From a virus, in IMG/VR virus record IMGVR_UViG_3300024270_000070: a stretch of DNA of 64,000 nucleotides; one strand, 5' to 3'. The notes beneath the pieces are model-generated. The model was not told where the DNA came from. It worked only from the letters and a program-made list of their open reading frames with translations, and did not search any database. Positions within the stretch are counted from its first letter, which is position 1. Each line of letters opens with the position of its first letter. Of this stretch, positions 8,081-63,545 are shown one piece after another. The position numbers were made by a program, and so were the translations under genes.

Positions 8081-8097
8081 GAAGAAATTAATATATC

Positions 8098-9939: not shown

Positions 9940-9963
9940 TATTAGAGAAAAACGTTTAAAAGA

Positions 9964-10317
9964 ATGGCTTTTAACAATCACATAGGAATTTATGCAACAA
10001 TGGAGGAGTTTCAGGCAAATGTTAACTTGCTTGAAACCCCTTGGGTTGCTTATGTGGGAACCCCCGGGTCTCCAGACTATAAAGTTCTTTACCCAAATGA
10101 CCTTGTTGTAAAGGATAATGCGGGTGTTAATATTGCTGAGGAAATTCTCAGACTTAAACCTGTTATATGTACTCAGGATGAGTACGATATTCTCATTTCT
10201 GAAGGTTCAGGATATGTTACGGGTGCTGATGGTATTACCAATGGTCCTGTTGATTATAATCCTGAGGTATACTATTATACTTATGATGCCACTGAGTTGG
10301 AAGAGGAGGAAGCATGA
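9964..10317 (+). CDS. hypothetical small structural protein
   Basis: ORF track; ATG start; acidic C-terminal tail EEEEA. Confidence 0.4.
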   Translation: MAFNNHIGIYATMEEFQANVNLLETPWVAYVGTPGSPDYKVLYPNDLVVKDNAGVNIAEEILRLKPVICTQDEYDILISEGSGYVTGADGITNGPVDYNPEVYYYTYDATELEEEEA

Positions 10318-10505
10318 TTTATAGAAATGGCATAGAATTAACGGGGCTTAAAACTCCTAAAAAAGAAAGTATTGGTAAAGGGCTGACCGTACAGGCAATT
10401 TATTATATGGGGGTAGTCCTCTATCAGGCAATACGTTCTTGTTTTGGTAGCGGCATTTGGGTGAATACCAAAGGTTGGGCCAATGATGAGGCGTGGAAAA
10501 ATTAA
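10314..10505 (+). CDS. hypothetical small protein (translationally coupled)
   Basis: ATGA stop/start overlap with upstream gene at 10314. Confidence 0.35.
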   Translation: MIYRNGIELTGLKTPKKESIGKGLTVQAIYYMGVVLYQAIRSCFGSGIWVNTKGWANDEAWKN

Positions 10506-10529
10506 AGATAAAAACATACCAATTATTAT

Positions 10530-13500: not shown

Positions 13501-16500
13501 ACGACCAAGAGGTTCAATATTTTTACATTGGTAATGAAAAGCCTATAATACATGGTGAAGAGGATGATAAAACAGGTGAGATAGAATACGCTTGTTCTTG
13601 GTCAGAGGGTGGTTACACTTCAACCCCTGACGTTGATTCGGACCTTTATACATCGAAATATCTTGAGGACGGTTCACAGGAATGGTATATGCTCCGTGGT
13701 AAAGAACTTCTTGATAACCCTAAGATGGAATGTTGGGAACTTCTTAACTCGGTTAATGAGCTTGCACTCTTTAAGACTGCCAAGGGATTCATGGTTGGTG
13801 ACGATGATGAAAAGGTTGGTATTCTCGTAAACGGTTCATTTGACGGTGCTTTCGAGTCTCGTTTCCCTGACTGTGGTGATTATTTCCACACAAACTCTTT
13901 GAGGAGATTTGCTGAATGGCTTGTTTCTTGTCGTTATTTGAATATCGACAATGAGACAGGTATGGCTGTGCCGTTCTCACAGGCAGCACTGCCAACAGAA
14001 AATTACTATCGTGACGCTGATGGAAAACTGATTATCCAAAGTCTTACTAAACAAACAGGGACATTTAAGATTAGTTATCCTAATTATAATTTCTATACTG
14101 AGGTCCCATATGAATCAATTTCATCGCAAATCACTAAAGATGGTTATGCATTGACAGAAATTGCTGATGATGTTATTGACAGTATTGAATACAATGAAGT
14201 TGATGTTATTCCTACTGAAAAAGATAGTGAATATGAATATATTAAATGTGGCGACTATTTCTATACATGGCAGTTAAGTAATCTTCTCCGTGTTGATGTA
14301 CTCCCTGAAGTAGAACAAGGAAATTATGATTTTGTTTGTGTCGGTGGAGACAAATATTATGTATGGAAAAACGAATTTGACTTTGCTCCATATTATGAGG
14401 CGCAACGTGTTGATGACACTCCTTTCAACAGAGCATTAAAATTTGCTGTGGAGAAATATGACCATATTGAAATGGATAAGATGGCTGCTTATTATATCTA
14501 TCTTATGCGTTTTGGTGGTGTTGACCAAACCGTGAAGAATAGTATGTTGACAACTGAAGGACCTAATACAAGTGACCCTAATTCAACATTGCCTTCTCTT
14601 TGGTTTTTCATCAACTATGACAACGATACAATTCTCGGTGTGAAGAATGATGGTCGTCTTGTTTTCGACCCTTACATTACTCGTGAGACTAAGGATGGTA
14701 CTGGTTATGTATATGCGGGCCGTGAGTCTACACTTTGGAACAACCTTGAGGCTGATGTTGAGTTCATGGAACATGTGACTGAGGTTGACAACAAACTTAC
14801 TGATTCAACTTCAAACCCTCTTTATAGCCTTTCATACGCAAATGCATTGAGAGAATATGACACAAATCAATCTGATATGTGGTGTGAGCGCATTTATAAT
14901 AAAGATGCTGAAACTAAATATATTAAGACTTATGTAGAGGGATGGACACAGAAGGTCGATAAAGAGGGCACCGCAACTCACGTTTATGAGGATTATCTCT
15001 ATGACGTGCAGGGTTCTCGTTCGGCTCATAGAAAATGGTGGCTTGGACGCCGTTTCAACGTGTTTGACAGTCGTTTTGCTAATGCTAACTTTAGGGCATC
15101 ACTTATTAAGTTCCGTTCAACAAACCTCCCTGCAGGCTCTGAGTTTACCATTAAATCAGGTGAACCTGTTTATTATGCATGGGGCCATGATAATGTTATT
15201 ACGGAGATGACTCCTACTGCACTTATTGCAGGTACAAATCATACTTTCAGAACTGCGTCAGCATTCAATATCGGTTCATATCTTGAACTAATGGGTGCTG
15301 CGAATATTTCTACATTTGACCTTCGTGGCTGCGTTGGTGCGTTGACTGAAATTGACGTTACCGGTTGCTATTCTCCTTCAGTCGGTACCAAAATGAAAGA
15401 AATTCTTGTTGGTGACCATACACGAACTGATTTAGTGAACAACGGTACTGCAATGAAATTCAGTGGACTTGATGTTGCTGAGAAACTTGAGGTTCTTGAC
15501 GTAACTAACATCAGGAATATTGATAAACTTGATGGACTTAACAAACTTCTTAATATCCGCAACGTATTTGCAAAAGGTACTTCGATTGCCAATTTTACAT
15601 TTGCGGATGGTTGCCTTGTGCAATATGTAGAACTACCGTCAACAACTGAAACACTTTCATTGACTAGGTCATCAATGATTTATTATGATGGTATTGTATC
15701 AGAAGACCCGACATTTGCGAGATTGAATAACCTTACAATTGACAATTGTAGGAACCTTATGAATGATTTCAACTTTGTATTGAATTGGGTTGCTGTTAAG
15801 AGCAATAGGAATGAACTTAACAAAGTTAATCTTAATCTGCAGGGTATCAATTGGGTATTCGATAGAACCAACTATAACAAACTGTTCTCTTTGGCGGGAA
15901 TTGGTAAGTCGCAGTTATCATCATTGAACGTTCGTGGTAATATTGAGATTAAGTCAGACCTTACCTTCAATGACATTGCGCAACTTAAGTCGATTTTTGG
16001 AGTAGATTGTTTCAAGGAAGGTTCTGCAGTGTATATTAAGGCATATACAGGTGTTTATGCGACAGAGGTTCCGTACATTTATGAAGGTGATGGCGATATC
16101 CGTATTGACGTAACAACAGTAGGTACACAACTTGGTGGTGAGATATCTGTTTATGCAACAGTCAACGAAATTGAGGAGGATGGTACTTCAGTAAACAAAA
16201 TTATTGAGGCTACTGAAGGTATTATTACAATGAATACTGATAATCTTAAGAGGGATTATTTCACCATTAAAGTATTGGAGAGCAACAACAATTATACATA
16301 TTTGAATCTTTCAATAGAATATGAGGATGAGAAAAATGAAATACCACTCCAACTTTCTATCCCAATTAAGAAACGTATCTACCCTTCAGAACTGTCAATT
16401 ATGTCATTAAAGGATTTGTATGATGATGACGATAAGAATAAACTTTGGATTGATTTCATCCCTTCATCAGTTAATGATGAAGAACTCGAAGGCCGTGGTA

Positions 16501-47388: not shown

Positions 47389-47653
47389 CCCTGAGAATGT
47401 TAAATTATGATTTTATGACAGAACGTACTAAAACACATTTGAAATTAATCGGTTTGAGACTTTGGTTAATTCCTTATTTTTTCATATAAATTTATCGTAG
47501 GGAAACTCCATCCTTTAGGGTGGAGAGGAACTACGATTAAACCCTTTTTGGTTAAACATTATTTTCTTAATGTAAATATATAACTTTTAAAAAAAAATAA
47601 AACTTTTTAATTTATTATAATATTTATATATAGAAATCACATACGTGAATGCT

Positions 47654-48820
47654 ATGATTGTACAAACCTATAACATACCTCTAATAATGGATGATACCAA
47701 TGCAACGCATTGGTACAATCTTCTTGTATGTGCAAGAGATGCGTACAATAGGTGTACACGTATTCTACATGATAACAAAATAACACTGTCACTTAAAAAA
47801 GTACACGAGGCGTGTTATAACGTAATTAGGACAGAGTTTCCTGCTTTATCTTCACAGATGGTAATCAAGTGCGAACAAGCAGCAGCGTCTGCTTTGAAAT
47901 CAATTAAAGCAAACAAACATAAGAACGCTGAAGTACCACAGAGAAAATCATTAACAATGACCCTCGATAAACGCCTCTACGGAGTGCTTACATCTGAAGG
48001 AATAACCATTACTGGGGCACAGAAAAACAAACGTACTTTCGTACCTTTTAATGTCTATCCTAAGGCAAAAGAAATGCTTAGTACTTATAAGGCATATGAC
48101 CCTACAATATTCTATAGAAACGGGAATTTCTTCCTTTCAGTACCCTTCGAAGTACCTGAAAAACCATTACATTCTGAGGAGTGCATAGGTGTTGACCTCG
48201 GTGCAAGAATGATATTTGTTACCTCAGAGGGTAAGGCATTTAAAGATACAACATATCTTAAGAAGCGTAGGGACATCCGTTATCTTAAGCGTAAACTACA
48301 AGAGAAAGGTACCAAATCAGCAAAGCGCCACCTTAAGAAAGTTCGCAACAAGGAACGCAACCTCTCTAAGGACATGTGTTATCGTGCAAGTAAAGTACTC
48401 ATTAATAGTACAAATGCTTCCATCATTGTGATGGAAGACCTCACAAAGATTAAAAAGAAAACTTCACGTACCAGTGAGGGGTACAAGAGAGCGAAGCATA
48501 ACAATGCTTTATCTCAGATTCCATTTTATGAATTTAAACGTATATTGACTTACAAGGCACCACTTGCGGGCAAGCAGGTGGAAACAGTTTCTCCGATGTA
48601 TACAAGTCAGATGGATTGTCGCACCAATAATCGTGATGGAGAGCGCCGTGGTCGCAGATATATCTGCGTTGACGGAGTTGTCTTTGACTCAGATTGGAAT
48701 GCTGCGATTAATATCGGACAAAGGTCCAACCACCCTGTATCGAGTTTTTTACCAATTGAAGGTCAATTGGTTATCCTTACAGGCAGGGAGCAGTCAACCT
48801 CCCAATCGACATGCCTCTAA
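47654..48820 (+). CDS. tnpB: TnpB (RuvC-like RNA-guided nuclease / IS605 OrfB family)
   Basis: RuvC-I GVDLGARMIFV, RuvC-II IVMEDLTKIKK, zinc finger CRTNNRDGERRGRRYICVDGVVFDSD, RuvC-III DSDWNAAINI; track start 47645 is GTG. Confidence 0.8.
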   Translation: MIVQTYNIPLIMDDTNATHWYNLLVCARDAYNRCTRILHDNKITLSLKKVHEACYNVIRTEFPALSSQMVIKCEQAAASALKSIKANKHKNAEVPQRKSLTMTLDKRLYGVLTSEGITITGAQKNKRTFVPFNVYPKAKEMLSTYKAYDPTIFYRNGNFFLSVPFEVPEKPLHSEECIGVDLGARMIFVTSEGKAFKDTTYLKKRRDIRYLKRKLQEKGTKSAKRHLKKVRNKERNLSKDMCYRASKVLINSTNASIIVMEDLTKIKKKTSRTSEGYKRAKHNNALSQIPFYEFKRILTYKAPLAGKQVETVSPMYTSQMDCRTNNRDGERRGRRYICVDGVVFDSDWNAAINIGQRSNHPVSSFLPIEGQLVILTGREQSTSQSTCL

Positions 48821-51854: not shown

Positions 51855-52583
51855 ATGATTAGCAAGCGGATAATCAAGAAATGGAATGAGAAAAGAGGGG
51901 TGATTGAGAATTTTTCTTATGGAAACCCTCTTTCCATTGCGATTCATGAAAAACGAAATTTCTTGGAGGAAGGCCTAATTAGAACCTATCCAATAGAGAA
52001 AACGAGAAAATATATCATTGATTTATATGATTTTGATGATAGTCAGATAGAGGTTTTCAGTAATAACAAAGTTGAAAAACTTCGTGTAATCATACCTAAC
52101 AATGAGAACATCATTGACAAAGTGAAGAAAGCAATGGATTTATGTGGCTATTTTTGTTCTGTTGAAAATGATTATCCGTATATTGATAATTGGGTATATC
52201 TTAACTTTGAACCTAAAAATCAGGATGATGTAAACAAGTATGTAAGGAGTATGGATAGAATATATCATGTTACCTCCGAAAAGAACGTTGAAAAGATTAG
52301 TAAAATAGGTTTATCACCGAGATTTAAAAACCCACTATTCTCTTATCCTGAACGAGTGTACCTATTTGTTGAAGATACACCTCCTGATGATATATACAGC
52401 CTTACAAAACAACTTAAAACCGTAAAACAGGACGAGGATAAGCATTGTTTGTTAATAATTGATGTAAGTAAGATTCCTGAAAACATTGATTTCTATCTTG
52501 ACCCCAATTATAGTTATGGAGTTTATACCAAAGATAATATCCCACCATCTGCAATTTTAGAAATTTATGAAATGATAATATAG
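51855..52583 (+). CDS. hypothetical protein with possible Tpt1/KptA-like (ADP-ribosyltransferase-fold) C-terminal motif
   Basis: IYHVTSEKNVEKISKIGLSPRFKNP..ERVYLFV parallels KptA [29 protein letters not shown] (YH-T...I...GL...R...R-YV-L); N-terminal R/H motif not found. Confidence 0.3.
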   Translation: MISKRIIKKWNEKRGVIENFSYGNPLSIAIHEKRNFLEEGLIRTYPIEKTRKYIIDLYDFDDSQIEVFSNNKVEKLRVIIPNNENIIDKVKKAMDLCGYFCSVENDYPYIDNWVYLNFEPKNQDDVNKYVRSMDRIYHVTSEKNVEKISKIGLSPRFKNPLFSYPERVYLFVEDTPPDDIYSLTKQLKTVKQDEDKHCLLIIDVSKIPENIDFYLDPNYSYGVYTKDNIPPSAILEIYEMII

Positions 52584-52703
52584 TTTGGCACGTTTTTTGT
52601 CGTAACTTAAATTATAATTTTAAAACACTATTTTATATGTACAATATTGGTGATAAGATTACAAAGAAGATTGACAAACGGTTTAAATGCCCTTGAACGT
52701 ATA

Positions 52704-53213
52704 ATGGGAAAAATAGAGTTAAAAAAACCCGTGTTTTCCAATTATAATTCAAATGTGCGTCTCTTTCAAGAGGATGCTAATGTCTTGGTAAAACATCTTA
52801 AAGGGCTTGATATAACTTATATAGACCCACCATATAATCAACATCCATATGGTTCTAATTATTTCATGCTTAATACTATTATAAAGAATGAAATAGGTTC
52901 TAACATTAGTAAAGTCGCGGGAATACCTGATGATTGGAACAAATCGTCTTATAATAAGAAAAATGACGCCCTAAAAACATTTGAAGAACTTGTTAGTGAT
53001 ATTGATTCAAAATATTTGATTATATCATATAACAATGAAGGGTTTATTTCTTATGAGGAAATGGTAGAAATGCTTTCTAAATATGGGGAATTAAAAGTTA
53101 AAAATATTGATTACGTTGCGTTTAGAGGCAGCAGAAACCTTAGAGAACGAGATATTCATACAACTGAATATTTGTTTATATTAAAAAAACACCTGAATAA
53201 AGAGTTTGAATAA
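52704..53213 (+). CDS. Dam-like (D12-class) DNA adenine methyltransferase C-terminal fragment lacking SAM-binding half
   Basis: DPPY motif IV (ITYIDPPYNQ) then D12 C-terminal region (YLIISYNNEGFISYEEM..RDIHTTEYLFILKK, compare EcoDam IPVLISNHDT..VDELLALYK); no FxGxG / KWAGGK segment; track start 52647 is TTG. Confidence 0.5.
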   Translation: MGKIELKKPVFSNYNSNVRLFQEDANVLVKHLKGLDITYIDPPYNQHPYGSNYFMLNTIIKNEIGSNISKVAGIPDDWNKSSYNKKNDALKTFEELVSDIDSKYLIISYNNEGFISYEEMVEMLSKYGELKVKNIDYVAFRGSRNLRERDIHTTEYLFILKKHLNKEFE

Positions 53214-53248
53214 GACTCTTTATTTTTGTTTTATTCAAACCTTATTTC

Positions 53249-53256
53249 TATATTTG
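53249..53256 (+). promoter_or_regulatory. Bacteroides-type promoter (-7 TATATTTG, -33 TTTG at 53225-53228)
   Basis: upstream of polymerase N-half. Confidence 0.45.
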
Positions 53257-53345: not shown

Positions 53346-55880
53346 ATGCTTGAACCTCAGAGAAAAACAGAGATTACGACCGATGTAATCAATTCATTTA
53401 TTAATGGTACCGACCCTCAGGAACGTATCGTAAATCTTGAATATAAGTACAATGAAGATAAAATAAAAGTGTTCTACAGGGACGCAAATGACGTTAAACA
53501 CTACAAGATGGAACCATTCCGTCCATTCGTGTGGGCAACACGAAGAGCCTGTGAGAAACTTTGCAATGGAGACCGTTCTGAAGTGCAACGCCTAATGCGT
53601 GAATTTGGAATTGGCATAAAAGTCCTTGATACAAAGAATAATCAAGGTGAAGTGGTTCCCGAAATCGCTGACAATGGCTATATCTTCATGTTCTATGCAA
53701 AAAGGCCGATGTCATATCAGAGATTTTCAAAATTCTTTAAAGAAGCCGAAAACCCTTTATATTCGAAATCAAAGGCTGATGATAACTCAGAAGAAGAGGA
53801 AAATGAGAATTTCGTTTCAAAAGCAGATGAAAGACAGTATCTTGTGGTAACTCCACAGGAACAGTTCATGATATCCACAGGAAAACGATTCTTTAAGGGG
53901 TATGAAGATTATGATAAACTCTTGAGGATGATATTCGACTTGGAGACTGAAGGCCTCGACCCTCGATATAATAGAATCAATCAGATTGGTGTGCGTTTTA
54001 ATCGTCCTGTGATGTATAAGGGTAAAAAAGTTGATTTTGAACGCATCCTCACAGTAACAGGAAACACAAAGGAAGAACGTGATGCAAGTGAGTTGCACAA
54101 CATTAAGGTATTCCTTTCAATGATTCAATATTTTAATCCTGACGTCATTACGGCACATAATGGAGAAAACTTCGACTGGAACTTCATTATCACAAGATGT
54201 GAACAACTTGACTATCCAATTGAGTACATTTGTGAGGAGATGAAAATGTTTGGTGATGATGTTATTAGAAAGAATACCAAGGATACAGTCCTTAAACTTG
54301 GTGGTGAGGTGGAACAGTTCAAGCAGACAATCGTTCCGGGAATAATTGTGACAGATTCTCTCCATGCGGTAAGACGCGCTCAGGCAATTGACAGTAATAT
54401 GCTTAAGGCTGACCTTAAGTACGTTACCAAGTATTCAAAGATGGAAAAGGTTAACCGTGTCTATGTACCGGGTGACAAGATTTCAGATACATGGAATGAT
54501 ACTGTTAACACATATGCATTGAATAATGAAAATGGTGATTGGTATAAAGTAACTGAAGATAAACCAATTAAGGCCGGTTATTTACCTACCACAGGAAAGT
54601 ACATTGTTGAACGTTATCTTCTTGATGACCTTTGGGAATGTGATAAGGTAGAACATCGTTACAATACAACCAATTTTCTTATATGTAAAATGCTACCGGT
54701 CCCATACCAGAAATGTTGTACAATGGGAACTGCGGGACAGTGGAAAAGTTTGATGCTTGCTTGGTCATATGAAAACGGTCTCGCAATCCCACAGTTCGGT
54801 GAAGGTGGAACATTTACAGGTGGTCTCTCAAGACTTCTCACAGTAGGATTTGTTGATAATGTTGCGAAATTTGACTTTAACTCACTTTATCCGTCAATTA
54901 TTCTTACATGGGGAATTACTCATGGTAGAGACCTTATGGATTCAATGCTTAAGTTCCTTGAATATGTGCTTACTGAACGTGAGAAATATAAGAAACTTAA
55001 GAAAAAAGCAGGAAAAGAAATAGATAAACTAAAAGAACGTATAAAAAACTTTAGTGGTAGTGATGATGAACTTAATGAGTTAAAAGATAAATTGAAATTG
55101 GTGGAAAAAGAGGAATCAGCAAATGATAAAAAACAGCTTCAAATGAAGGTGTTAGGTAATAGCTTTTTCGGGTCATACGGGGCCGAGAATCTTTTTCCAT
55201 GGGGAAGCAAGATATGTGCTGAGAGGACAACATGTACAGGTCGTATGTGCCTTCGCCTTATGATTTCTCACTTTAATAGTCTTGGCTATAAACCTATCGT
55301 TGGTGACTCTTTCACTCCTGACACGCCATTATTTATCCGTTGGAAAAATAGTGGGCTGATTGACATTCTTCCTGTTGAAACGCTTATCAATCCATTTGCT
55401 ATTAAAGTAGATGAACTTGGTAGGGAATACGATTATTCAGAAAAGCCGTTTGAAGTGCTTTGTAGAAGTGGTTGGGTTTCACCTGAATACATTTATCGTC
55501 ATGGGTGCGATAAGCCAATATACGAGGTTTCTGAGGGTGATATGAGGGTGGAAGTAACTGAGGACCACAGCCTCTTCAATTCTGATAAGGTTAAGATTAA
55601 ACCAAGTGAGATAAATGAAAGTACGAAATTGGAGTATTATGAGGGCGAGATAAAGGGGCTTAATCAGAAGCGTTTCCCGTATGATGATTGGAAACAAATT
55701 GGTATTGATGCGGCAAACAATCCTAATGGCAAGATAAACTGCGTTATTTTCAATACAACAAAGGAGAATATGAAGATTTTCTACGATTCGTTCATGGAGA
55801 ATTATAAGGAGGGGGTTACGTACTCGAAAACCATTGTTGCAGGTCTCCAATATGTAAAGAAAATGATAAAAAATAGTTAA
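53346..55880 (+). CDS. family B DNA polymerase N-half (exonuclease + palm motifs A,B) fused to N-terminal split-intein half
   Basis: Exo I FDLETEGLD, Exo II NGENFDWNF, motif A DFNSLYPSII, motif B KVLGNSFFGSYG, then ..YKPIVGD | SFTPDTPLFI.. ; ORF stops 190 aa after junction without motif C or thumb. Confidence 0.85.
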   Translation: MLEPQRKTEITTDVINSFINGTDPQERIVNLEYKYNEDKIKVFYRDANDVKHYKMEPFRPFVWATRRACEKLCNGDRSEVQRLMREFGIGIKVLDTKNNQGEVVPEIADNGYIFMFYAKRPMSYQRFSKFFKEAENPLYSKSKADDNSEEEENENFVSKADERQYLVVTPQEQFMISTGKRFFKGYEDYDKLLRMIFDLETEGLDPRYNRINQIGVRFNRPVMYKGKKVDFERILTVTGNTKEERDASELHNIKVFLSMIQYFNPDVITAHNGENFDWNFIITRCEQLDYPIEYICEEMKMFGDDVIRKNTKDTVLKLGGEVEQFKQTIVPGIIVTDSLHAVRRAQAIDSNMLKADLKYVTKYSKMEKVNRVYVPGDKISDTWNDTVNTYALNNENGDWYKVTEDKPIKAGYLPTTGKYIVERYLLDDLWECDKVEHRYNTTNFLICKMLPVPYQKCCTMGTAGQWKSLMLAWSYENGLAIPQFGEGGTFTGGLSRLLTVGFVDNVAKFDFNSLYPSIILTWGITHGRDLMDSMLKFLEYVLTEREKYKKLKKKAGKEIDKLKERIKNFSGSDDELNELKDKLKLVEKEESANDKKQLQMKVLGNSFFGSYGAENLFPWGSKICAERTTCTGRMCLRLMISHFNSLGYKPIVGDSFTPDTPLFIRWKNSGLIDILPVETLINPFAIKVDELGREYDYSEKPFEVLCRSGWVSPEYIYRHGCDKPIYEVSEGDMRVEVTEDHSLFNSDKVKIKPSEINESTKLEYYEGEIKGLNQKRFPYDDWKQIGIDAANNPNGKINCVIFNTTKENMKIFYDSFMENYKEGVTYSKTIVAGLQYVKKMIKNS
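55308..55877 (+). other. N-terminal split-intein half (Int-N) with ~85-aa C-terminal extension
   Basis: block A SFTPDTPLFI (Ser1, DT), block B VEVTEDHSLF (T-x-x-H); extension ends ..TIVAGLQYVKKMIKNS. Confidence 0.7.
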
Positions 55881-55886
55881 AAAAGT

Positions 55887-55917
55887 AAACCCAGGATAAA
55901 ATCCTGGGTTTGTTTAT
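55887..55917. terminator. bidirectional intrinsic terminator
   Basis: AAACCCAGGAT-aaa-ATCCTGGGTTT then GTTTATTCT; between convergent polB N-half and minus-strand fibre gene. Confidence 0.75.
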
Positions 55918-55971
55918 TCTCCTTCTATGATTTCATTTTCATCATTAGTTGATGTATCTTCGGGGTCTATG

Positions 55972-57855
55972 CTATTCCCCCGAATAGTCTTCAGGAGCAA
56001 TGGTCCAATTAGTGCGATTGACTACATATGTAACTCCATTCAAAAGACCTTTAAACTTAGTTGGGTTATCATAGTCGTCCCATTCAACTACAACTATTGG
56101 TTCACCACCTGTTATTCTCATTATATTCCAACACCAATCACAGAAAAAATTTGTTTTACTTTCATTCAATAATTCATCTGGTATTGTAGTCACACTGTTA
56201 GAAGAAATCATAAATGGGGTATATAAATATTTTGACATTATTCTATACTGTTCCTCGTTAAGAATTCCTCCATCACTACTATACTGTTCAAAACTATTTA
56301 CAGAACCTATGTTATTTCTAATTGTTTGTTTTTCTTCATTGGTTAAATCATTTGTTGTTAATAAAACATTTTTAACTGAATCACCGATATGATTTTTATC
56401 AACTTTATTGGACAACTTATGTTCTCCTGCAATAAAATCTTGAGAAATTATAGGTTCTACAGTTGTAACTTTCGAAACAAATAAGCCATAATTATTAAAT
56501 GTCGCAATTTTATTGCCCTCATTATCAATAATATGAAATTCATCGTTAAAGTCATCAGTTAAATTAGAATCGTTTTCAAGGTGACTAATTTTTGTTGGTA
56601 GCGGTATTGTTGTCACAGAACTACCATTGAAAATGTCGATACTAAAGTTTTTACTTGACCCTGCTTTAATTGTTAGTGCATTAGCCACACTATCAGCCGC
56701 ACCACCTTTACTTGATGAAGAAGCATATTTTATATTTTGCAATTCAGTAATAGCAGATGTATTTAAAGAAACTTCATTTGTTAAAGTTTCTACATCATCA
56801 CTTAAAGATGATATATTTTTTTCATTATTTTGGATATTGTCTTTTAATGTGCCAACTGAAGTGTTGATGTTTAAAAAATTATTATTTACATAATTTAAAT
56901 CTGATTTTTCAGTTAATTTATGCTTTCCTGCAATAAACTCAGTTGAAGTTACGCCATTGTTATCTATAGTTACTATTATATTAGTCTTATTATCGACAAT
57001 TTTTAAAGTACCTTCCTCTGAATCGTTAAATGGATTTTCAGTTAAGTCAGAAAACTTAATATTCCCTATCGATTTTTGAGTATCAACTCGAAGTTTTAAA
57101 AGTTCATTGTCAACGTAAGTTCTTTCCGTTTTATTAGTAAGATAATGTTTACCTGCACGAAATTCCACTGCCTCGGCCCCTTTTTCGTCAACCTTAAATG
57201 CAATGTTATTTTTGTTATCGGATATTTGAAATGCGGGGTCTTCATCAATTTTAATTGCGTTTGATAACTTAGTGTCACTAATTTTAACATTAGTAATGCG
57301 TCCTTTCTCTTGTTTAAGAGTAATATCAACATATTCTCCTGAAGAAAAATTAGTTGTTGTTAAATCATCTAAACGGTTTTCAAGTATATTATTATCAATT
57401 TTTTCAGTTAATTTATGACCACGTGCATTAAATTCTACAGAAGAAACACCATTGCTATCTATGCTGGTAATTATATTACCATTTAAATCCGCAATATCAA
57501 AAGAGCCTGATTCATCTTCTTTAAAAGGTAAATTTTCATTAGCATTAAAAATTAGATTATCTACATAATTTTTATCTACTTTATTAGAAAGTTTATGAAT
57601 ACCATCTTCAGAAATAACTTCAACATCAATAACGTGCAGACCTTTATCATCGAATTTTGCTACTATATTACCATTTTCGTCAACAATATTAAATTCCCCA
57701 TCATCAGTAATTGCGAATGGGTTATCAGTCAAATCATTAAAATTACCCGAAAAACTACTTGGAGTATACCCCAAAGCCTTATGAATTGTTTCTTTAGTTA
57801 CATCATCACCTATTTTAAGCAATTTATCGGATAATTGTATATAAAATGTTGCCAT
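55972..57855 (-). CDS. tail fibre protein with five ~45-aa tandem repeats
   Basis: repeat units F-I-DxNGN-I..-D.NGV...EF.AGKHKLTEK.D.NYV x5. Confidence 0.55.
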   Translation of the reverse strand: MATFYIQLSDKLLKIGDDVTKETIHKALGYTPSSFSGNFNDLTDNPFAITDDGEFNIVDENGNIVAKFDDKGLHVIDVEVISEDGIHKLSNKVDKNYVDNLIFNANENLPFKEDESGSFDIADLNGNIITSIDSNGVSSVEFNARGHKLTEKIDNNILENRLDDLTTTNFSSGEYVDITLKQEKGRITNVKISDTKLSNAIKIDEDPAFQISDNKNNIAFKVDEKGAEAVEFRAGKHYLTNKTERTYVDNELLKLRVDTQKSIGNIKFSDLTENPFNDSEEGTLKIVDNKTNIIVTIDNNGVTSTEFIAGKHKLTEKSDLNYVNNNFLNINTSVGTLKDNIQNNEKNISSLSDDVETLTNEVSLNTSAITELQNIKYASSSSKGGAADSVANALTIKAGSSKNFSIDIFNGSSVTTIPLPTKISHLENDSNLTDDFNDEFHIIDNEGNKIATFNNYGLFVSKVTTVEPIISQDFIAGEHKLSNKVDKNHIGDSVKNVLLTTNDLTNEEKQTIRNNIGSVNSFEQYSSDGGILNEEQYRIMSKYLYTPFMISSNSVTTIPDELLNESKTNFFCDWCWNIMRITGGEPIVVVEWDDYDNPTKFKGLLNGVTYVVNRTNWTIAPEDYSGE

Positions 57856-57893
57856 ATCTTGTTATTTTTATTGTTTTATAAAATGGGGTGTGG

Positions 57894-59012
57894 TTATTCA
57901 TTAACCACACCCCCAGGTAAATAAGGTCCAAAAAATGTCGAACCATCATTTCCATTTAACACCGCACTTGGGTTGGTATGGAAGTATGTGTTTGTTACCA
58001 TATTTTGATTTTTTAATCCTTCTGAATGTGTACTTGTAAATTGAACATTACCCCAAATATTTCCATTAAATATAACTCCTTTACAATCTTTTAATGTAAC
58101 AGCACCATACCAAATATTTTGTCCCGTAAAATTCCATCCAACGGTGCTTTTATTCATGTAAATTGCAACACCGCCACCTAATCCAGTAATTGAATTATGG
58201 TTGTAAGTACAACTATAACAGCCTCCGTGTGACTCGTTAGTAATTCCGTCCCCATTCAAAGCAAAACCGCAATAATTGTTACAAAACATGTTGCCAACAT
58301 ACATATTGTTTCCACCTTCATTTAGAACACCAATAAAGTTGTCACCAAAATTACAACATTCCACCTGATTATATTCGCCATATTGAGCAAACCACAAACC
58401 ATAATAATTAAAATAAAAACTAGAACGTGTCACTTCTATAGTATGGAAGAAACGGCCATATTCACCCCCTCCTGAATCGTTGTCTGCACAATATAGTCCA
58501 CACATGTCCCATCCTAAAACATCAACATCAGTAATTTTAACACGTCTGGTTTTTTCACACCAAATACCATAACGATTGCCTGAATTTGTTTTATCAAGAA
58601 TATCATCGACATTACCCGTAGGTTGCACTTTAGATGCCCCGCCATCAATAAACATTCTTGAAATTGTCACATTAGTCGAACCAACGATGTAAAAAAGAAT
58701 ATTAGATGCACTATCACTTGATAATTTAAATATGGTTTTAGTGTTTCCGATAAATGATATGTTAGAAGGGACTGTTATATGCGAAGGAAAAATATATTCA
58801 CCATCATTAAACCTAATAGTTTTGCCATTGGCTGCTGATAATAACTCATTCATTTTACTCATATCAACAACACCAGGTACTACACCATATGACGATGCAT
58901 AAATATCCTCTACACCTCCTTGTGAAGCACTTATTATTCCATCTTCCATATTAATAAGGTGAGTATGCTCTAATGTCATTCCCTTCACAAACCCTTGTTT
59001 TGTATAACCCAT
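57894..59012 (-). CDS. parallel beta-helix (pectate-lyase-like) tailspike / putative depolymerase
   Basis: repetitive N-x-x-G / GN.hF beta-helix coils (VIFNGNIWGN, CNNYCGFALNGDGITNESHGG, GLGGGVAIYMN); first ATG at 59012 (track start 59072 is TTG). Confidence 0.45.
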   Translation of the reverse strand: MGYTKQGFVKGMTLEHTHLINMEDGIISASQGGVEDIYASSYGVVPGVVDMSKMNELLSAANGKTIRFNDGEYIFPSHITVPSNISFIGNTKTIFKLSSDSASNILFYIVGSTNVTISRMFIDGGASKVQPTGNVDDILDKTNSGNRYGIWCEKTRRVKITDVDVLGWDMCGLYCADNDSGGGEYGRFFHTIEVTRSSFYFNYYGLWFAQYGEYNQVECCNFGDNFIGVLNEGGNNMYVGNMFCNNYCGFALNGDGITNESHGGCYSCTYNHNSITGLGGGVAIYMNKSTVGWNFTGQNIWYGAVTLKDCKGVIFNGNIWGNVQFTSTHSEGLKNQNMVTNTYFHTNPSAVLNGNDGSTFFGPYLPGGVVNE

Positions 59013-59044
59013 GTCAATTATTTTTTTTTGAAAAAAATTATATT

Positions 59045-59908
59045 TTAATAACCATAAATTACCATAGGACAATAATAATTAGCAGTTTTTCCTGCAACTG
59101 TTTGTCCCAAAACAATTGTTGTACCAAAATAAGGTTTACCAAGTATACTATTAGAAGTCGTATAATTTACATAAGGGATAGTATACAATGATGAATAATC
59201 ACTATAACCTTCATTTACTGTAATACCAAGATGAATATTTTTTTGCAATGTACGTTTAATAGGACATCTAATAATTTGATAACCATTTGTTTCGGTAGTA
59301 TCAGATAAAATAGATGATTGATTTGCTTGGTCATATACTAATTCTTCGACAGTTTCTGTTTCAGCATCCACAAAATATAGTTTAATATATGGAATAGTTA
59401 TAGGTTCGCTAGGGAAAGTTTTGTTAGGTGTGATAACATAAAAATCAACATAATCTACATATGTACCTCCTGAAAGAGCACATCTTTCTACGAATGAAGA
59501 ACCACCTGTACCTTGAGTAGGACCATATGATGAAACACTTAAATCTGAGAAATTAACATTATTGTTTAACAATATAACTGTTTCTTGTCCATCACTTCCA
59601 TCTCCATTATTTTCATAAATGCTTGCAATTGAAATACTGATGTTATTGGTTACTACTGGAATTGTTATAGTCATAATATTATCTTGAATATTTGGTTCTA
59701 TTACCTCACCACCCATAACAATACTATATTCACCAAATATATAATCTTGTGATAATGTAACAGTCCATACTACGTTTTCCTCGTTTCTATTAATAAAATT
59801 AGGAATATTGTGCGATATACCTGCACCCATAGTTTTTTGCACAATATAAGTGCTAAGTGTTCCTATATTTGATGCTGAAAAATTAGCACCTTTAATATAT
59901 AAAATCAT
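59045..59908 (-). CDS. hypothetical tail-associated protein
   Basis: ORF track; ATG start. Confidence 0.4.
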   Translation of the reverse strand: MILYIKGANFSASNIGTLSTYIVQKTMGAGISHNIPNFINRNEENVVWTVTLSQDYIFGEYSIVMGGEVIEPNIQDNIMTITIPVVTNNISISIASIYENNGDGSDGQETVILLNNNVNFSDLSVSSYGPTQGTGGSSFVERCALSGGTYVDYVDFYVITPNKTFPSEPITIPYIKLYFVDAETETVEELVYDQANQSSILSDTTETNGYQIIRCPIKRTLQKNIHLGITVNEGYSDYSSLYTIPYVNYTTSNSILGKPYFGTTIVLGQTVAGKTANYYCPMVIYGY

Positions 59909-59923
59909 CTCTTTATTTATTTT

Positions 59924-60274
59924 TTATTCTAAAATCATTTCTCCAATTACACCCTCACCTAATTTAGATGAAGCGCCATTTGTGTTTTCTTCATCATCTA
60001 TAATGACAACAATTGCGCCTATTGCAATTTTACCAGCAGCATATGCCGCATCGTATTCTGCCTGTGTACCATAAAACAGTTTTGAATCAATATACGATTT
60101 GGGAACAAATATATCTAATGCTTCACCATCTTGTGATAATACATAAAGTTCTGAGTCTCCGCTAACACCATGTTTAATGGCAATTTCTCCTTGGAGCATT
60201 CCTATTTCTTTAGCTTTACCAATTGATAATGGTGAATTTCCACGTAGATGTTGTATTATATTTCGGTTTTCCAT
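59924..60274 (-). CDS. hypothetical protein (first gene of minus-strand fibre cassette)
   Basis: ORF track; ATG start. Confidence 0.4.
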   Translation of the reverse strand: MENRNIIQHLRGNSPLSIGKAKEIGMLQGEIAIKHGVSGDSELYVLSQDGEALDIFVPKSYIDSKLFYGTQAEYDAAYAAGKIAIGAIVVIIDDEENTNGASSKLGEGVIGEMILE

Positions 60275-60473
60275 ATATATATTTATTTTTCACTATAAAA
60301 ATTATTTCTAACATTTTTAGCAGTAACGTATTGTAAATTCATACTACTTTTTCTTAATAAATATCATAAAAAGTCCAGACATTTTCGTATAGACTTCAGT
60401 TATTTATGGCATTTTTAGTGTAACTTGTATATCATTCCCAAAAAATATATTTGGAAAAAAGAAAAATAGTTTT

Positions 60474-60481
60474 TATTTTTG
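60474..60481 (+). promoter_or_regulatory. Bacteroides-type -7 promoter motif TATTTTTG
   Basis: 27 nt upstream of ATG 60509. Confidence 0.45.
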
Positions 60482-60508
60482 CAAAAACTTAATGAAAAAT
60501 ATTTTAAT

Positions 60509-60610
60509 ATGATTAAAGTAGAGAAAAAGGGAAAAACAGATGATTACGTTTATGATATTTCATGTGATGGTACAATTGTAAATGCGTTGGGACTAAATGT
60601 AATCTCAAAT
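60509..60610 (+). other. C-terminal split-intein half (Int-C)
   Basis: blocks F/G (VYDIS..., LNVISN) ending in Asn, +1 Thr. Confidence 0.7.
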
Positions 60611-62029
60611 ACTGACGGATTTAACTTCAAACTCCCGTCAGAGTATCGTTATACTGACGAAAACCCTTACATTGGAAAAGGACTAAATAGAAATGTCGTA
60701 GAAGGGCAAAAATATACAGGTTTCAAGGCCGATGTCGCTGAGTTCAATGACCTTTATATGCGAGGAAAGATGGGACTCGGCATAGATGAGATTGTTGATT
60801 CGACCATCAACTTCTCACGTAAAAATTACGCAGATTATTTCCCGGAAAATCCATTTCCTAATGATGTGAAACTTGTCGGTAATACCATTAAATCCAAGAA
60901 AATGCCTATATATATTTCAAAGTTTCTTGAAAAAGGTATCAGGTTGCTTCTGCAGAACAATGGCTCAGGATTTTTGGATGAATATTATTCTTATATAGAA
61001 AAGATATACAATTATCAGATTCCGCTTAAGGATATTGCATCCAAGGGTAAGGTAAAAAAGAACATTAAAGATTATATTAAGGATTGCAAGACGCTTACTA
61101 AGGCAGGTAGGCCTAAGTCACGTCAGGCATGGATGGAATTGGCAATTAAGGAAGGGCTTGATGTCAAGCAGGGTGAGACTTTGTATTATGTAAATACAGG
61201 TAAAAGCAAGTCACAGGCTGATGTCAAGAAAGTGGCTAAATATTATGAATATCAGACTTTATCAAACGGTGAACACGAGAAGGTGGATGTAACCACTAAA
61301 ATTGAAAAGGAGTTCAAGGCGCATAAGAAAGAGGACAAGTCCCTTACAATGAATGAATTCTTAACAAAGGCCTATCCATATGCTCAGAAAGAGGATGAGA
61401 TTATTCTTAACGCACGACTTCTTCCACAGAATATTGTTGATTCTGAAACAGATGTATATTGTCAGGAAGGTGAGGAATATAATTCAGCAAAGTATATTGA
61501 CATGTTCAATAAGAGAATCACACCTCTTCTTGTATGCTTCTCGAAAGATATTAGAACACGTATTCTTATTACCAATCCTGAGGACCGTCCATATTTTACC
61601 GAGGAAGAATCAGTACTTACTTCGGGACAACCTAATAAGGAAGGCGACCAAGATACATATGAACAGTTGATGACAATGGAAGATAAGGAGATTCGTTTTT
61701 GGAAAGCCCATCCTGAGTTCGATATTCCTTTCATTGATGAATGTTCTATGAATTGGGAGGAAATTGTGGCTGACTATGATAGGAGAATGGCTGAGGAAGA
61801 GGAAAAGGGTATTAATGAAATTCGTAATGCATTCAATGAGGCGTTTGAAGCCCTGCCATATGATGAAAAAGTAGCATTTGCTGAAGATGGGGATATACCT
61901 AAGAGCATATCGGCAATTGCTGATATTGACCCTAAGACAGGAAATTTTGTTTCAAAGAAGTACCCTGAATATGTTCTTATGACATTATCAGACCTTATTG
62001 AGAGTATTAGTGAGTATAATGCAGTTTGA
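60509..62029 (+). CDS. family B DNA polymerase C-half: C-terminal split-intein half + motif C + thumb
   Basis: MIKVEKKGKTDDYVYDISCDGTIVNALGLNVISN (34 aa) resembles Npu DnaE Int-C MIKIATRKYLGKQNVYDIGVERDHNFALKNGFIASN; followed by TDGFNF (motif C DTD completed with N-half ..IVGD); KSKKMPIY KxY-like; track start 60479 is TTG. Confidence 0.75.
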   Translation: MIKVEKKGKTDDYVYDISCDGTIVNALGLNVISNTDGFNFKLPSEYRYTDENPYIGKGLNRNVVEGQKYTGFKADVAEFNDLYMRGKMGLGIDEIVDSTINFSRKNYADYFPENPFPNDVKLVGNTIKSKKMPIYISKFLEKGIRLLLQNNGSGFLDEYYSYIEKIYNYQIPLKDIASKGKVKKNIKDYIKDCKTLTKAGRPKSRQAWMELAIKEGLDVKQGETLYYVNTGKSKSQADVKKVAKYYEYQTLSNGEHEKVDVTTKIEKEFKAHKKEDKSLTMNEFLTKAYPYAQKEDEIILNARLLPQNIVDSETDVYCQEGEEYNSAKYIDMFNKRITPLLVCFSKDIRTRILITNPEDRPYFTEEESVLTSGQPNKEGDQDTYEQLMTMEDKEIRFWKAHPEFDIPFIDECSMNWEEIVADYDRRMAEEEEKGINEIRNAFNEAFEALPYDEKVAFAEDGDIPKSISAIADIDPKTGNFVSKKYPEYVLMTLSDLIESISEYNAV

Positions 62030-62844
62030 TTATGATTAAAACACTTGAAATTAACTATAAGGCAAAGAATAGTGTTAATGACTATTATTATCTTAGTGAG
62101 GATGAAAATGAGAAAAAAAGAAAACTTCTTCCTAAGAAGATTGAGTTTACACCGGGGTTGAATCTTGTTATTGGTGAAAACGGTTGTGGTAAGACGACAT
62201 TGGTTGATATAATAACAAGGTTGACGCTTGCTCGTGGTGGCCTCAATAATGAATATACGTTTTGGGATGATGTAAAGATTTTTTATCCTGATTCATCAGG
62301 GTTTGACCCCGCTTATAAGCCGCAGGATATGTTCAGAATTGTCAATGATTATGATGCTCCTGTTCATAGAATGGATGATACGGGTGTGAAAAATAAGAGA
62401 GGCGGTTACAATTTTCAAAATTTCCGTGATTTTGCACAGTTTTTTTCTGAAGGAAAAATGAGCAAAGGACAGAGAATGATAAATACGCTTAAAATGGCAA
62501 TCATTGAGGCCAATGAAAAAATGGGGGTATATACCAAAGATTCTTTGTTTCCTAAAAAACCGATGAATGATATGTGGACAAAGGCTGTTGAGAAAACGAA
62601 AGAGGCTATTGACGGTTTTAATGATGATACACTCCCAAAGAAAGCGGTTTTCATTATGGATGAACCTGATGAGGGGCTTGATGTGGATAATCTTGCAGCA
62701 TTGAGGGATTTTTTGGTTGATGCATCACAAACAGTGCAAATTATTGTTGTTCTTCATAATCAACTTCTTATTAAATCTCTTGCTAACAAAGCAAATATCA
62801 TTGAATTATCTGAGGGATATTTGGATAAGATTAGACGATTTTAA
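62026..62844 (+). CDS. small ABC-type (RecF/SMC-like) ATPase
   Basis: Walker A GENGCGKTT, signature-like MSKGQR, Walker B/D-loop VFIMDEPDEGLD; ATGA overlap with polB C-half. Confidence 0.55.
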   Translation: MIMIKTLEINYKAKNSVNDYYYLSEDENEKKRKLLPKKIEFTPGLNLVIGENGCGKTTLVDIITRLTLARGGLNNEYTFWDDVKIFYPDSSGFDPAYKPQDMFRIVNDYDAPVHRMDDTGVKNKRGGYNFQNFRDFAQFFSEGKMSKGQRMINTLKMAIIEANEKMGVYTKDSLFPKKPMNDMWTKAVEKTKEAIDGFNDDTLPKKAVFIMDEPDEGLDVDNLAALRDFLVDASQTVQIIVVLHNQLLIKSLANKANIIELSEGYLDKIRRF

Positions 62845-62847
62845 AAT

Positions 62848-62883
62848 AAAACGGGATGTGTCTCACGACAGGTCCCGTTTTTT
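62848..62883 (+). terminator. intrinsic terminator, copy 2 of the 35-nt element
   Basis: identical to 47298..47332. Confidence 0.65.
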
Positions 62884-62921: not shown

Positions 62922-63545
62922 TTAACTATAAAATTCTTGAAAAGTAAAGGTTTGTATTGACCAGTTCCTAAGTGCTTCAACGTTAGTTCCTGAATTTAAC
63001 TGACTTGCTTCCGATGGTTCATAATATCCAGATAATACAGCATAACCAGTCTGAGTTGTACAAATGTATACGAGATAACAGAGGTAAGAACCTATTGGCC
63101 ATGTACTGTGTTTGCTTGTGTTAAGGGTTAATGTCGCACCTGTGGTATAAGTTGAGTTTAAAGTACCTGGTGAACAATAAAAAATAGATGTACCTGTTTC
63201 CAATGAGCTATATTTTAACGAGGGGAGGGTTGAAGTTGTATATCTCCATCCATTTAATACTGTGTTTGATGTTAACGCACTAGTATAAAAATGAATTGTT
63301 AGTTTACCAATGTTTTTTGTCATAGACCAATCTTTGCTTGGTACAAGTTGTTTAGCATTATAGGCTGTTGAAATTGTTAAAGTATAACCGGTTTTTGCTG
63401 CTGCAGTAATTTGGGCTTTTGTTGGACACATATCTAAACTTGGTATGTATGATGCGTTATTGATGTTCGTTGTGTTGAAACTGAACTTCCCTGTATTTTG
63501 CATTTCTCCTGCTGTGTATATAGCATTACTATTATCCGTCGCCAT
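62922..63545 (-). CDS. hypothetical S/T-rich beta protein (fibre tip / receptor-binding candidate)
   Basis: ORF track; T/S/Y/N-rich. Confidence 0.4.
   Translation of the reverse strand: MATDNSNAIYTAGEMQNTGKFSFNTTNINNASYIPSLDMCPTKAQITAAAKTGYTLTISTAYNAKQLVPSKDWSMTKNIGKLTIHFYTSALTSNTVLNGWRYTTSTLPSLKYSSLETGTSIFYCSPGTLNSTYTTGATLTLNTSKHSTWPIGSYLCYLVYICTTQTGYAVLSGYYEPSEASQLNSGTNVEALRNWSIQTFTFQEFYS

Follow-up and report, generated by a model that had tools for sequence, protein, structure and literature searches.

Organisation of the Split polB Locus

A family B DNA polymerase gene (polB) that occurs as two separate genes, the first running into the N-terminal piece (Int-N) and the second opening with the C-terminal piece (Int-C) of a putative split intein, lies in a 64,000-nt stretch of viral DNA (IMG/VR record IMGVR_UViG_3300024270_000070; one strand), referred to here as the window. 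The upstream gene, or N-half, was present in the list of open reading frames (ORFs) at 53346..55880 (+) and specifies 844 amino acids (aa); the downstream gene, or C-half, is found on the same strand at a distance of 4.6 kb. Within the N-half, Pfam recognized DNA_pol_B_exo1 (3.3e-11) and, over profile positions 53-194 of 453 only, DNA_pol_B (1.6e-08), and the protein matched PHROG 262 (DNA polymerase) with an E of 1.5e-52. Motif A (DFNSLYPSII) and motif B (KVLGNSFFGSYG) are followed by an extein end of ...GYKPIVGD, and Exo II, motif A, and motif B were alignable to the Thermococcus PolB 1qht. Past ...YKPIVGD, the frame continues as SFTPDTPLFI...VEVTEDHSLF and stops 190 aa beyond the Asp. The C-half has no Pfam match and carries the database label 'hypothetical'. 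It is listed in the ORF table from TTG 60479; initiation at ATG 60509 gives MIKVEKKGKTDDYVYDISCDGTIVNALGLNVISN followed by TDGFNF, and a 506-aa product. Because 76 of 103 homologous C-halves start exactly 34 aa ahead of TDGFNF, and because the TTG falls within a -7 promoter box, ATG 60509 is assigned on sequence as the true start.

It could be supposed that the halves are really contiguous and that the block between them was either mis-joined during assembly or is a switchable, invertible segment; the 4.6-kb block is of opposite strand, has a G+C content of 0.30-0.32 (vs 0.35-0.38), and shows a reversed GC skew. However, the exact 844-aa N-half was recovered from at least 23 contigs (32 index blocks) of up to 350 kb in separate ENA, JGI, and Logan assemblies, five of the places where it was found share mostly the same neighbor genes, and contig L017, the one displayed and the product of a different assembler, matches this arrangement throughout, the four minus-strand genes included, with 100% identity. 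Without the block, the Int-N stop and the Int-C start codons would still be there, no flanking inverted or direct repeats were found around it, and an insert-free split with a gap of 130 nt occurs among relatives. An assembly artifact or invertible segment is thus effectively refuted.

Position of the Break Within Motif C

Contiguous homologs, 78-95% identical, read ...PIVGD-TDGFNF... exactly at the window break (e.g., P0046, ...GYKPVVGD-TDGFNFKLP..., and P0026, ...YQPIVGD-TDGFNFQLP...), and therefore the two window ORFs abut precisely at D/T. The contiguous PolB P0026 is 95% identical to the window exteins, with the C-extein being collinear with its residues about 664-1135, and in DNA its contig (L001) is 95% identical to the window as far as 55278, where the match breaks off, to begin again at 60609, two bases ahead of the Thr+1 codon. 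The hypothetical spliced sequence aligned through motif C of 1qht (gykpivgDTDgfnf vs GFKVLYADTDGLHA); the N-half by itself ended short of this motif, and the best 1qht alignments of a contiguous homolog otherwise tended to end just ahead of it. The 3'-5' exonuclease and motifs A, B, and C of a family B polymerase hence occur in order, with the DTD of motif C formed only across the junction. The second Asp of DTD serves family B polymerases as a ligand of the catalytic metal. Since the motif A Asp and the first motif C Asp are on the N-half, and the second, metal-binding Asp and the thumb are on the C-half, neither half alone is predicted to have a complete active site.

A sequence-only reading of this DNA had proposed two ORFs with the exonuclease and palm motifs A and B on the first, the run of the N-half into SFTPDTPLFI and VEVTEDHSLF with a stop 190 aa later, a 34-aa peptide from ATG 60509 ahead of Thr+1 and DGFNF, and a motif C divided between the halves. 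These proposals were borne out, respectively, by the coordinates, Pfam matches, and 1qht alignment, by the translation, by the starts of the homologous C-halves, and by the contiguous homologs together with 1qht, which place the break at VGD/TDG. Of the checks suggested with it, alignment to contiguous PolB homologs found the ends to abut at ...PIVGD/TDGFNF..., and the search for an assembly inversion, given the contigs with the exact N-half and the same layout in L017, indicated that the split is not an artifact.

Evidence for an Intein and Its Two Pieces

The Int-N is composed of a beta-rich splicing part and a helical tail (Table 1). A profile (A1) was built from 28 Int-N representatives that are 51-77% identical to the window Int-N, and among them S1, D5, T6, P7, Y63-R64-H65, T84, D86, and H87 were invariant. 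The pattern S[FVL][TA]xDTP opens the Int-N in 95 of 95 split N-halves. The N-terminal nucleophile in block A and the TxxH of block B are those of a Class 1 intein, and R64-H65, in a region that aligns with Aes123 PolB1, provides the NX motif, a His preceded by Arg/Lys upstream of block B that is specific to Ser1 oxyester inteins (PMC10189870). The family consensus for the Int-C is YVYDISLDGTVVNALGxNVxSN/TDGFNF, with the same 76 of the 103 homologs having the 34-aa length; of about 90 Int-C sequences, nearly all have a terminal Asn, with KQ at the end of a few, and all listed have Thr+1, such that blocks F and G, with a C-terminal Asn and then a +1 nucleophile, also agree with Class 1. An insertion at YGD/TDS with Ser1, a terminal Asn, and Thr+1 defines the pol-c allele (Ogata et al., PMC549080). 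The window has VGD/TDG, aligned to YAD-TDG of Thermococcus PolB, together with Ser1, Asn, and Thr+1, and because of these features its intein is classed by sequence as a split pol-c allele.

A full-length intein was detected at the identical site in P0229 (locus L002), comprising 355 aa and matching Pfam LAGLIDADG_3 (9.5e-08, above cut-off) and Intein_splicing (4.5e-06), and a second one of 349 aa, with Gln as its last residue, in L066. Comparison of A1 with the N-terminal splicing region of P0229 gave an hhalign probability of 99.5% (E 2.7e-23), and the window Int-C and the C-terminal splicing region of this protein share 68% identity over 19 aa. The PDB matches of A1 were to inteins only, namely 9hth (1.6e-4), which is the Aes123 phage PolB1 intein (PMC13014065), and the TFIIB mini-inteins 5o9i/5o9j; a phmmer search of PDB with the Int-N alone was weak (E 0.19), with the family profile doing better. 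A HINT fold is predicted. P0229 itself begins only 32 residues before its intein, near the start of the L002 contig, its upstream PolB part being either missing or separately encoded.

Within the Int-N tail, residues about 118-145 are variable, whereas about 146-190 form a conserved helical module. A profile of the tail aligned to residues 201-285 of the P0229 intein (E 3.7e-5, probability 71%), which constitute its second LAGLIDADG motif region (VPECILNSDKEVKKAFLDGFCCGDG...SKVAMGGLYFILKELGY), and the window tail lacks the catalytic GDG. The tail is thus a probable decayed LAGLIDADG relic, which would account for the long Int-N. The dN/dS of the Int-N, calculated against the L005 allele, was 0.056, comparable to that of the exteins (0.07-0.11). 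With separate genes, each carrying one extein and having its own stop or start, the arrangement is that of a naturally split intein, and this architecture is kept in about 100 loci. Because the junction, the Int-N, and the Int-C are conserved in hundreds of database proteins, the split intein would not be a product of chance.

Several observations weigh against this interpretation. Pfam Intein_splicing returned nothing at E<=0.1 on the window halves, and Pfam and PHROGs together recognized no intein family on them, so profile, homolog, and structure routes were used instead. Intein_splicing matched weakly in only seven of the 28 family members (best 0.0073), and even P0229 scored 27 bits against a gathering cut-off of 35.8. 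In place of the usual penultimate His, the window and most split members of the family have Ser; His was seen only in a few members and in the contiguous P0229. Modeling of the fused Int-N and Int-C with AF2 from the single sequence gave a pLDDT of 32 and was discarded. Matches to the promoter consensus ahead of the two genes are enriched only about twofold, a second DNA polymerase may be encoded outside the 64-kb window, and splicing itself is deduced from sequence and predicted fold. The shortfall with the curated profile is offset because of the hhalign E of 2.7e-23 to P0229 and the structure matches; the profile check put forward with the sequence-only reading was accordingly passed, with PolB matches in Pfam and the family profile reaching P0229, though with no Pfam intein match on the halves. 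A penultimate His is common, though not universal, among active inteins. Its absence may slow Asn cyclization, and would lower the expected speed of the reaction rather than exclude membership in the class.

Proposed Mechanism and Alternatives

Given the anatomy, homology, conservation, selection, predicted fold, and recurrence observed, it is highly probable that this polB gene is split at the pol-c site in motif C and that its halves are trans-spliced to an intact polymerase; the chemistry and its operation in vivo are inferred. The upstream gene would yield the N-extein with its 190-aa Int-N, and the downstream gene the 34-aa Int-C with the C-extein. Following the chemistry of class 1 oxyester inteins, the two intein pieces would associate into the HINT fold, Ser1 would undergo an N-O acyl shift, Thr+1 would then attack to form a branched ester, and the terminal Asn would cyclize. 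The outcome would be a 1126-aa polymerase with an intact DTD and the release of the intein pieces, and the spliced product would contain the tryptic junction peptide PIVGDTDGFNFK.

The halves might instead function as a two-subunit polymerase without splicing, held together non-covalently with the intein fragments as dimerization handles, much as in some T4-like phages, whose gp43 is split without an intein, or in the tailed split Topo II/NrdA. Split phage enzymes working as non-covalent complexes do exist (PMC2677866; bioRxiv 2022.08.31.505936), the penultimate His is absent, and the Int-N tail represents an extra conserved module with no assigned role. However, such a complex would retain 190 + 34 foreign residues inside the DTD catalytic loop, and a mere dimerization handle would not need the (nearly) invariant Ser1, NX Arg-His, TxxH, terminal Asn, and Thr+1, making this arrangement improbable. 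Less probable still is a decaying polB, disrupted by an intein remnant and a cassette in a phage whose replication is served by another polymerase. The 64 kb visible are part of a genome of roughly 350 kb, which leaves room for such an enzyme, and some relatives have stop codons just past the junction; yet both ORFs are intact, the exteins and the Int-N have dN/dS values of 0.06-0.1, hundreds of split homologs keep both halves open, and the identical N-half protein recurs on the 23 or more contigs. Neither alternative displaces trans-splicing as the preferred explanation.

Relationship to Known Split and PolB Inteins

The sequence-only reading had described the intein as DnaE-like on the resemblance of its Int-C to that of Npu DnaE, and had considered a split polB with 4.6 kb between its halves unusual; neither description was upheld. 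A BLASTP comparison of the two Int-C sequences produced no alignment, and what the two share is no more than the generic F/G block pattern. Split inteins of cyanobacterial DnaE (Npu, Ssp) differ further in having Pol III alpha as host and Cys1/Cys+1 in place of Ser1/Thr+1, and the DnaE-like label was rejected. As to rarity, a split at the same site is known from Nanoarchaeum equitans, whose PolB genes NEQ068 and NEQ528 break at the pol-c position (PMC549080), and PolB16 OarG is a PolB split intein from a sheep-gut metagenome (PMC10189870).

The Neq Pol split intein thus shares its break site with the window. However, N. equitans is archaeal and thermophilic and its halves are in distant loci, whereas the window represents a mesophilic gut jumbo phage with halves 4.6 kb apart on one strand; the window Int-N also has the extra helical endonuclease relic of about 70 aa, and its family still includes contiguous, endonuclease-bearing, and uncoupled forms. 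The contiguous pol-c PolB inteins (Thermococcales Pol-2, such as PI-PkoII, and that of Mimivirus) reside in one polypeptide and carry an active LAGLIDADG endonuclease, in contrast to the two genes of the window and its break after a decayed endonuclease remnant. The position of PI-PkoII is presumably pol-c. This element is intein-2 of KOD PolB (PMC6759347). PolB16 OarG is an atypical split intein with an Int-N of 15 aa, Ser+1, and an N-extein ending ...GDTD, two residues downstream of the window site, whereas the window intein is canonically split (190/34 aa), with Thr+1 and a penultimate Ser. Finally, the Aes123 PolB1 or CL intein (PDB 9HTH; PMC13014065) is naturally contiguous, whereas that of the window is split.

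Genes broken by split inteins were described as fractured genes and explained by a gene-breaking model (Dassa 2009, PMC2677866). As with those, the window contains a replication-type enzyme of a phage broken by a split intein, with halves that are co-oriented and close, and most of its relatives also have a free-standing Vsr-like homing endonuclease gene between the halves. Unlike them, the window lacks an endonuclease gene, both in the gap and across the rest of its 64 kb, and four opposite-strand cargo genes are found instead. By analogy, the window fits the step of endonuclease loss, which in the model precedes uncoupling of the halves. PolB was not among the eight enzyme types reported by Dassa 2009 (PMC2677866), a survey of crAss-like phages mentioned inteins and introns in PolB but not the split arrangement, and searches of the literature on split or PolB inteins found no paper describing the split PolB family of the window. 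Already known, then, are split inteins in phage replication genes (PMC2677866), a same-site split PolB (PMC549080), and a gut PolB split intein (PMC10189870); new are the host, how large and diverse the family is, its complete set of evolutionary intermediates, and the capture of cargo between the halves. The hosts of the intein appear, from the promoters, G+C content, and sources of homologs, to be Bacteroidota-type gut/rumen jumbo phages.

Distribution, Evolution, and Mobility of the Family

Homology searches recovered hundreds of relatives of both halves. Among the best 120 N-half homologs, 95 had the same split (824-992 aa, with an Int-N end of about 190 aa) and about two dozen were contiguous proteins of 1122-1224 aa. 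When the Int-N profile was run against IMG/VR and JGI metagenomes, 131 loci were identified, mostly on rumen/gut contigs of 50-410 kb. The C-extein was downstream on the same strand in every locus with both parts, and the interval between the Int-N and the C-extein varied from 130 nt, with no gene between, to 7.6 kb. In L091 and L131, the PolB N-half with its Int-N has no C-half within 10 kb on either side, and by analogy with N. equitans or cyanobacterial dnaE these halves would be fully uncoupled. L091 may also have an extra insertion, since its N-extein match is divided into 7763-8908 and 9224-10000. A different insertion of about 80-90 aa (…YIYDPTFVP…/…YIYNPNFIEVKNKE…) separates the exonuclease and polymerase parts of P0060-P0073 (919-aa N-halves) and P0099 (a 1224-aa contiguous protein), and is absent from the window. 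No close relative was returned by megablast of the region and tblastn of the halves against INPHARED, but only distant matches to Salinibacter-phage PolB; the phage likewise has no close relative among 50,697 GenBank phage records.

Of 100 gap ORFs from 72 distinct gaps, 81 belong to one DUF723/DUF4379/Vsr-like family, present in zero to three copies and almost always co-oriented. An example at L005:12648-13814 contains zinc-ribbon modules of the DUF723 and DUF4379 kinds in repeats (Pfam 1.9e-08 and 5.8e-08), and its C-terminal region resembles, by eye, the Vsr-like endonucleases of Dassa et al. (PMC2677866). With four minus-strand genes, the window gap is unique in the sample: neither it nor the rest of the 64 kb contains a DUF723/Vsr-like ORF, and homologs of its four genes were not found near polB in any other surveyed locus. 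From this survey, a full-length LAGLIDADG pol-c intein would have lost its endonuclease activity and then been broken, after which free-standing endonuclease genes of the DUF723/Vsr-like type would have colonized the gap, a condition that persists in most relatives; in the window genome, the endonuclease genes would have gone and a portable four-gene tail-fiber-type module would have entered the gap on the opposite strand.

Sequence comparisons also point to exchange at the intein site. In blocks of 40 columns, P0026 is 90-100% identical to the window exteins except in the two junction blocks (55% and 82%), and these blocks (about 80 aa) are 100% identical to P0036, to which P0026 is elsewhere 51-97% identical; the pattern is read as a recombination tract centered on the intein site. 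The window Int-N is 91% identical to that of L005, compared to 78% for the adjoining N-extein, and Int-N dS is about half extein dS. The P0026 tract and the L005 identities would fit gene conversion, recombination, or homing at the site. In L002, an IMPDH gene (10214-12745) occurs in pieces with Vint and Intein_splicing matches and an ORF between them; it would be a second fractured or intein-bearing gene, analogous to the IMPDH-1 loci of Dassa 2009.

The family extends the split pol-c PolB intein from N. equitans alone to a large clade of rumen/human-gut jumbo phages, in which an essential replication enzyme would be completed only post-translationally. Within this one clade are represented all of the proposed stages of gene breaking, from a contiguous LAGLIDADG intein through a bare split and splits with one to three free-standing endonuclease genes, to a split with unrelated cargo (the window) and halves more than 10 kb apart. 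Such natural intermediates make the origin of split inteins and split genes directly testable. The family also supplies hundreds of natural, canonically split Ser1/Thr+1 inteins, catalytically cysteine-independent and with a 34-aa Int-C.

Junction Inserts in Relatives: Candidate Translational Hops

In 25 of 68 distinct junction contexts, all of them in relatives, an insert was observed three codons past the splice junction. Its pattern is ...SN/T-D-G(GGY)-stop-(0-4 further nt)-GGN-TTY-AAY-TTY..., where the second Gly codon is followed by FNF(K/Q)(L/M)P... (e.g., L005:13946-13966, L032, L047, L025, and L143). The junctions read GGT TAA GGC in L005, GGC TAGCTA GGT in L032, GGC TGAAT GGT in L143, and GGT TA GGT in L025, with a spacer of 2-7 nt ahead of the second Gly codon. 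The corresponding window sequence, 60608-60628, is uninterrupted, and the window has neither insert nor endonuclease gene. The inserts are 5, 6, 8, 9, or 10 nt long, being in frame at 6/9 and out of frame at 5/8/10, and all three stop codons (TAA, TAG, and TGA) occur among them. The take-off codon was GGC or GGT in 25 of 25 contexts, whereas 19 of 44 insert-free loci have GGA or GGG, and the FNF... codons after the landing codon vary synonymously. Past the landing codon, the C-extein ORF remained open for 476-516 codons in 19 of the 20 contexts with enough contig; four insert contexts run into the contig end. The exception, L028, has a stop after 104 codons with the contig continuing, and L074 also stops early (69 codons); the ORF may be interrupted again in these two, through another insert, an intron, or decay. 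Gene callers truncate the C-half in relatives with junction inserts, a matter of consequence for annotation.

Two general explanations for the inserts were rejected. Separate initiation of the C-extein past the stop is at odds with the absence of an in-frame start codon between the stop and GFNF, and recoding or suppression of the stop codon does not accommodate the occurrence of all three stops and the frame shift in 10 of the 25 inserts. An association of the insert with the presence of endonuclease was unsupported (Fisher p=0.73), although the test had low power, with an endonuclease-family ORF in 65 of 75 gaps, and five of the 29 loci scored as insert-bearing lacked a confirmed insert.

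T4 gene 60 has its bypass insert in a mobile cassette that also includes the MobA endonuclease, against whose cleavage the insert protects, and some metagenomic bypass cassettes have a Vsr or GIY-YIG endonuclease instead of MobA (bioRxiv 2022.08.31.505936). The inserts of the relatives share with T4 gene 60 the take-off, stop, and landing anatomy and the location next to a homing endonuclease. By this analogy, they may represent natural short-range translational bypassing, a suggestion offered tentatively and rated at slightly less than an even chance. No natural in-frame stop hop was known to a 2016 review (PMC5009743); if the suggestion is true, the hops of the relatives, 5-10 nt long and with in-frame stop hops among them, would form a natural and diverse family. 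The lack of both endonuclease and insert in the window would fit a bypass that is not needed after endonuclease loss. It is conceivable, if somewhat doubtful, that the window is one end-state of an arms race between homing endonuclease and essential gene, with the hops a by-product in relatives. In addition, one additional T follows the Gly codon (GGC T TTC AAC) in two independent human-gut contigs, L111 and L114, such that the C-extein would need a +1 shift; the T may reflect a homopolymer error or mark a frameshift site.

The Gap Cassette, Expression Signals, and Neighborhood

Table 1. Features of the window in and around the two polB genes; positions are those of the 64,000-nt stretch.
Feature	Coordinates	Strand	Description
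Promoter-like, N-half	53225..53256	+	Bacteroidota consensus TTTG ... TATATTTG; -7 box 53249-53256
N-extein	53346..55307	+	654 aa: PolB N-terminal domain, 3'-5' exonuclease, palm motifs A and B, first motif C Asp
Int-N splicing part, about aa 1-117	55308..55658	+	Beta-rich; block A Ser1 (SFTPDTP)
Int-N NX motif R64-H65	55497-55502	+	Within splicing part
Int-N block B T84-E-D-H87	55557-55568	+	Within splicing part
Int-N helical tail, about aa 118-190, and stop	55659..55880	+	Probable decayed second LAGLIDADG half-domain, without catalytic GDG
Hairpin between convergent N-half and 627-aa gene	55883..55915	.	Strong hairpin; bidirectional terminator candidate
Gap gene 4, 627 aa, repeat-rich, fiber-like	55972..57855	-	Internal repeats; no Pfam family
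Gap gene 3, 372 aa from ATG 59012 (probable start), beta-helix tail-protein type	57894..59012	-	PHROG tail protein 4.4e-08
Gap gene 2, 287 aa, no assigned function	59045..59908	-	Syntenic partner of gene 3 in other phages
Gap gene 1, 116 aa, small, fiber-adaptor-like	59924..60274	-	Weak Phage_tail_C match
Promoter-like, C-half	60450..60481	+	Bacteroidota consensus TTTG ... TATTTTTG; -7 box 60474-60481
Int-C, 34 aa	60509..60610	+	Block F VYDI, block G ...NVISN; terminal Asn, penultimate Ser
C-extein	60611..62029	+	472 aa and stop: Thr+1, second motif C Asp (TDGFNF), rest of palm, thumb
AAA/SMC-type ATPase gene overlapping C-half	62026..62844	+	Same transcription unit; ATPase also follows contiguous PolB in L001
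Terminator-like hairpin ending C-half/ATPase unit	62848..62880	+	Sequence

The four minus-strand genes of the gap have counterparts elsewhere: other phage contigs have g116-like, g287, g392, and g627-like genes in the same order at places apart from polB, and from this order and its tail-protein-type matches the cassette is interpreted as a portable module of tail-fiber or receptor-binding type that landed in the gap. It is not part of the polymerase, the intein, or the element. Its presence there may reflect that the gap of a fractured gene is a place where insertions do no harm. Gap gene 3 had been listed as 392 aa from TTG 59072; its homolog P0241 is 372 aa, and its start is probably the ATG given in Table 1. 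Relatives of this gene carry fused Beta_helix, DUF4988, or collagen domains, with one such relative belonging to a Bacteroidales metagenome-assembled genome, and the N-terminus of gap gene 4 resembles that of the gene after the g392 homologs in L149-L151. The cassette-like module adjoins a gene with an Mtd_N domain in L149 and L150, and DUF5906 primase-type and SSB genes in L151. A related-locus search of IMG/VR with the two largest gap genes found none.

Separate promoters for the two halves, at 53249 and 60474, and terminators after each had also been proposed from the sequence alone. The -7 boxes are present at both positions and hairpins were located where the terminators were expected (Table 1); promoter function remains suggestive, in that the pattern TTTG-N19-21-TAnnTTTG occurs 11 times in the 64 kb vs 5.4 expected, a number reached in three of 100 shuffles.

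Just upstream of polB, an ORF at 52647-53213 (+) matches only the C-terminal part of D12-class N6-adenine methyltransferases (Pfam positions 158-236 of 253; PHROG 223-378 of 798). It opens with TTG and comprises 188 aa, the gene call in L017 being 169 aa from an internal start, and it may be a truncated or split methyltransferase; a 242-aa ORF without a family match (51855-52583, +) precedes it. About 4.5 kb upstream of polB is a TnpB/Cas12f-like gene (47645-48820, +; OrfB_IS605 and TNB domains). Genes of this type are also found near polB in L001, and DUF723 endonuclease-type genes occur elsewhere in L001, L003, and L005. Most of the large window ORFs have no Pfam or PHROG family, the 64 kb contain no tRNA gene, and a 2969-aa ORF at 10530-19439 (+) has only PHROG matches of unknown function. 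Downstream of the C-half/ATPase unit lies an isolated 207-aa ORF without a family (62922-63545, -). Similarity to the 95%-identical L001 ends at 62828, and the flank beyond is also variable.

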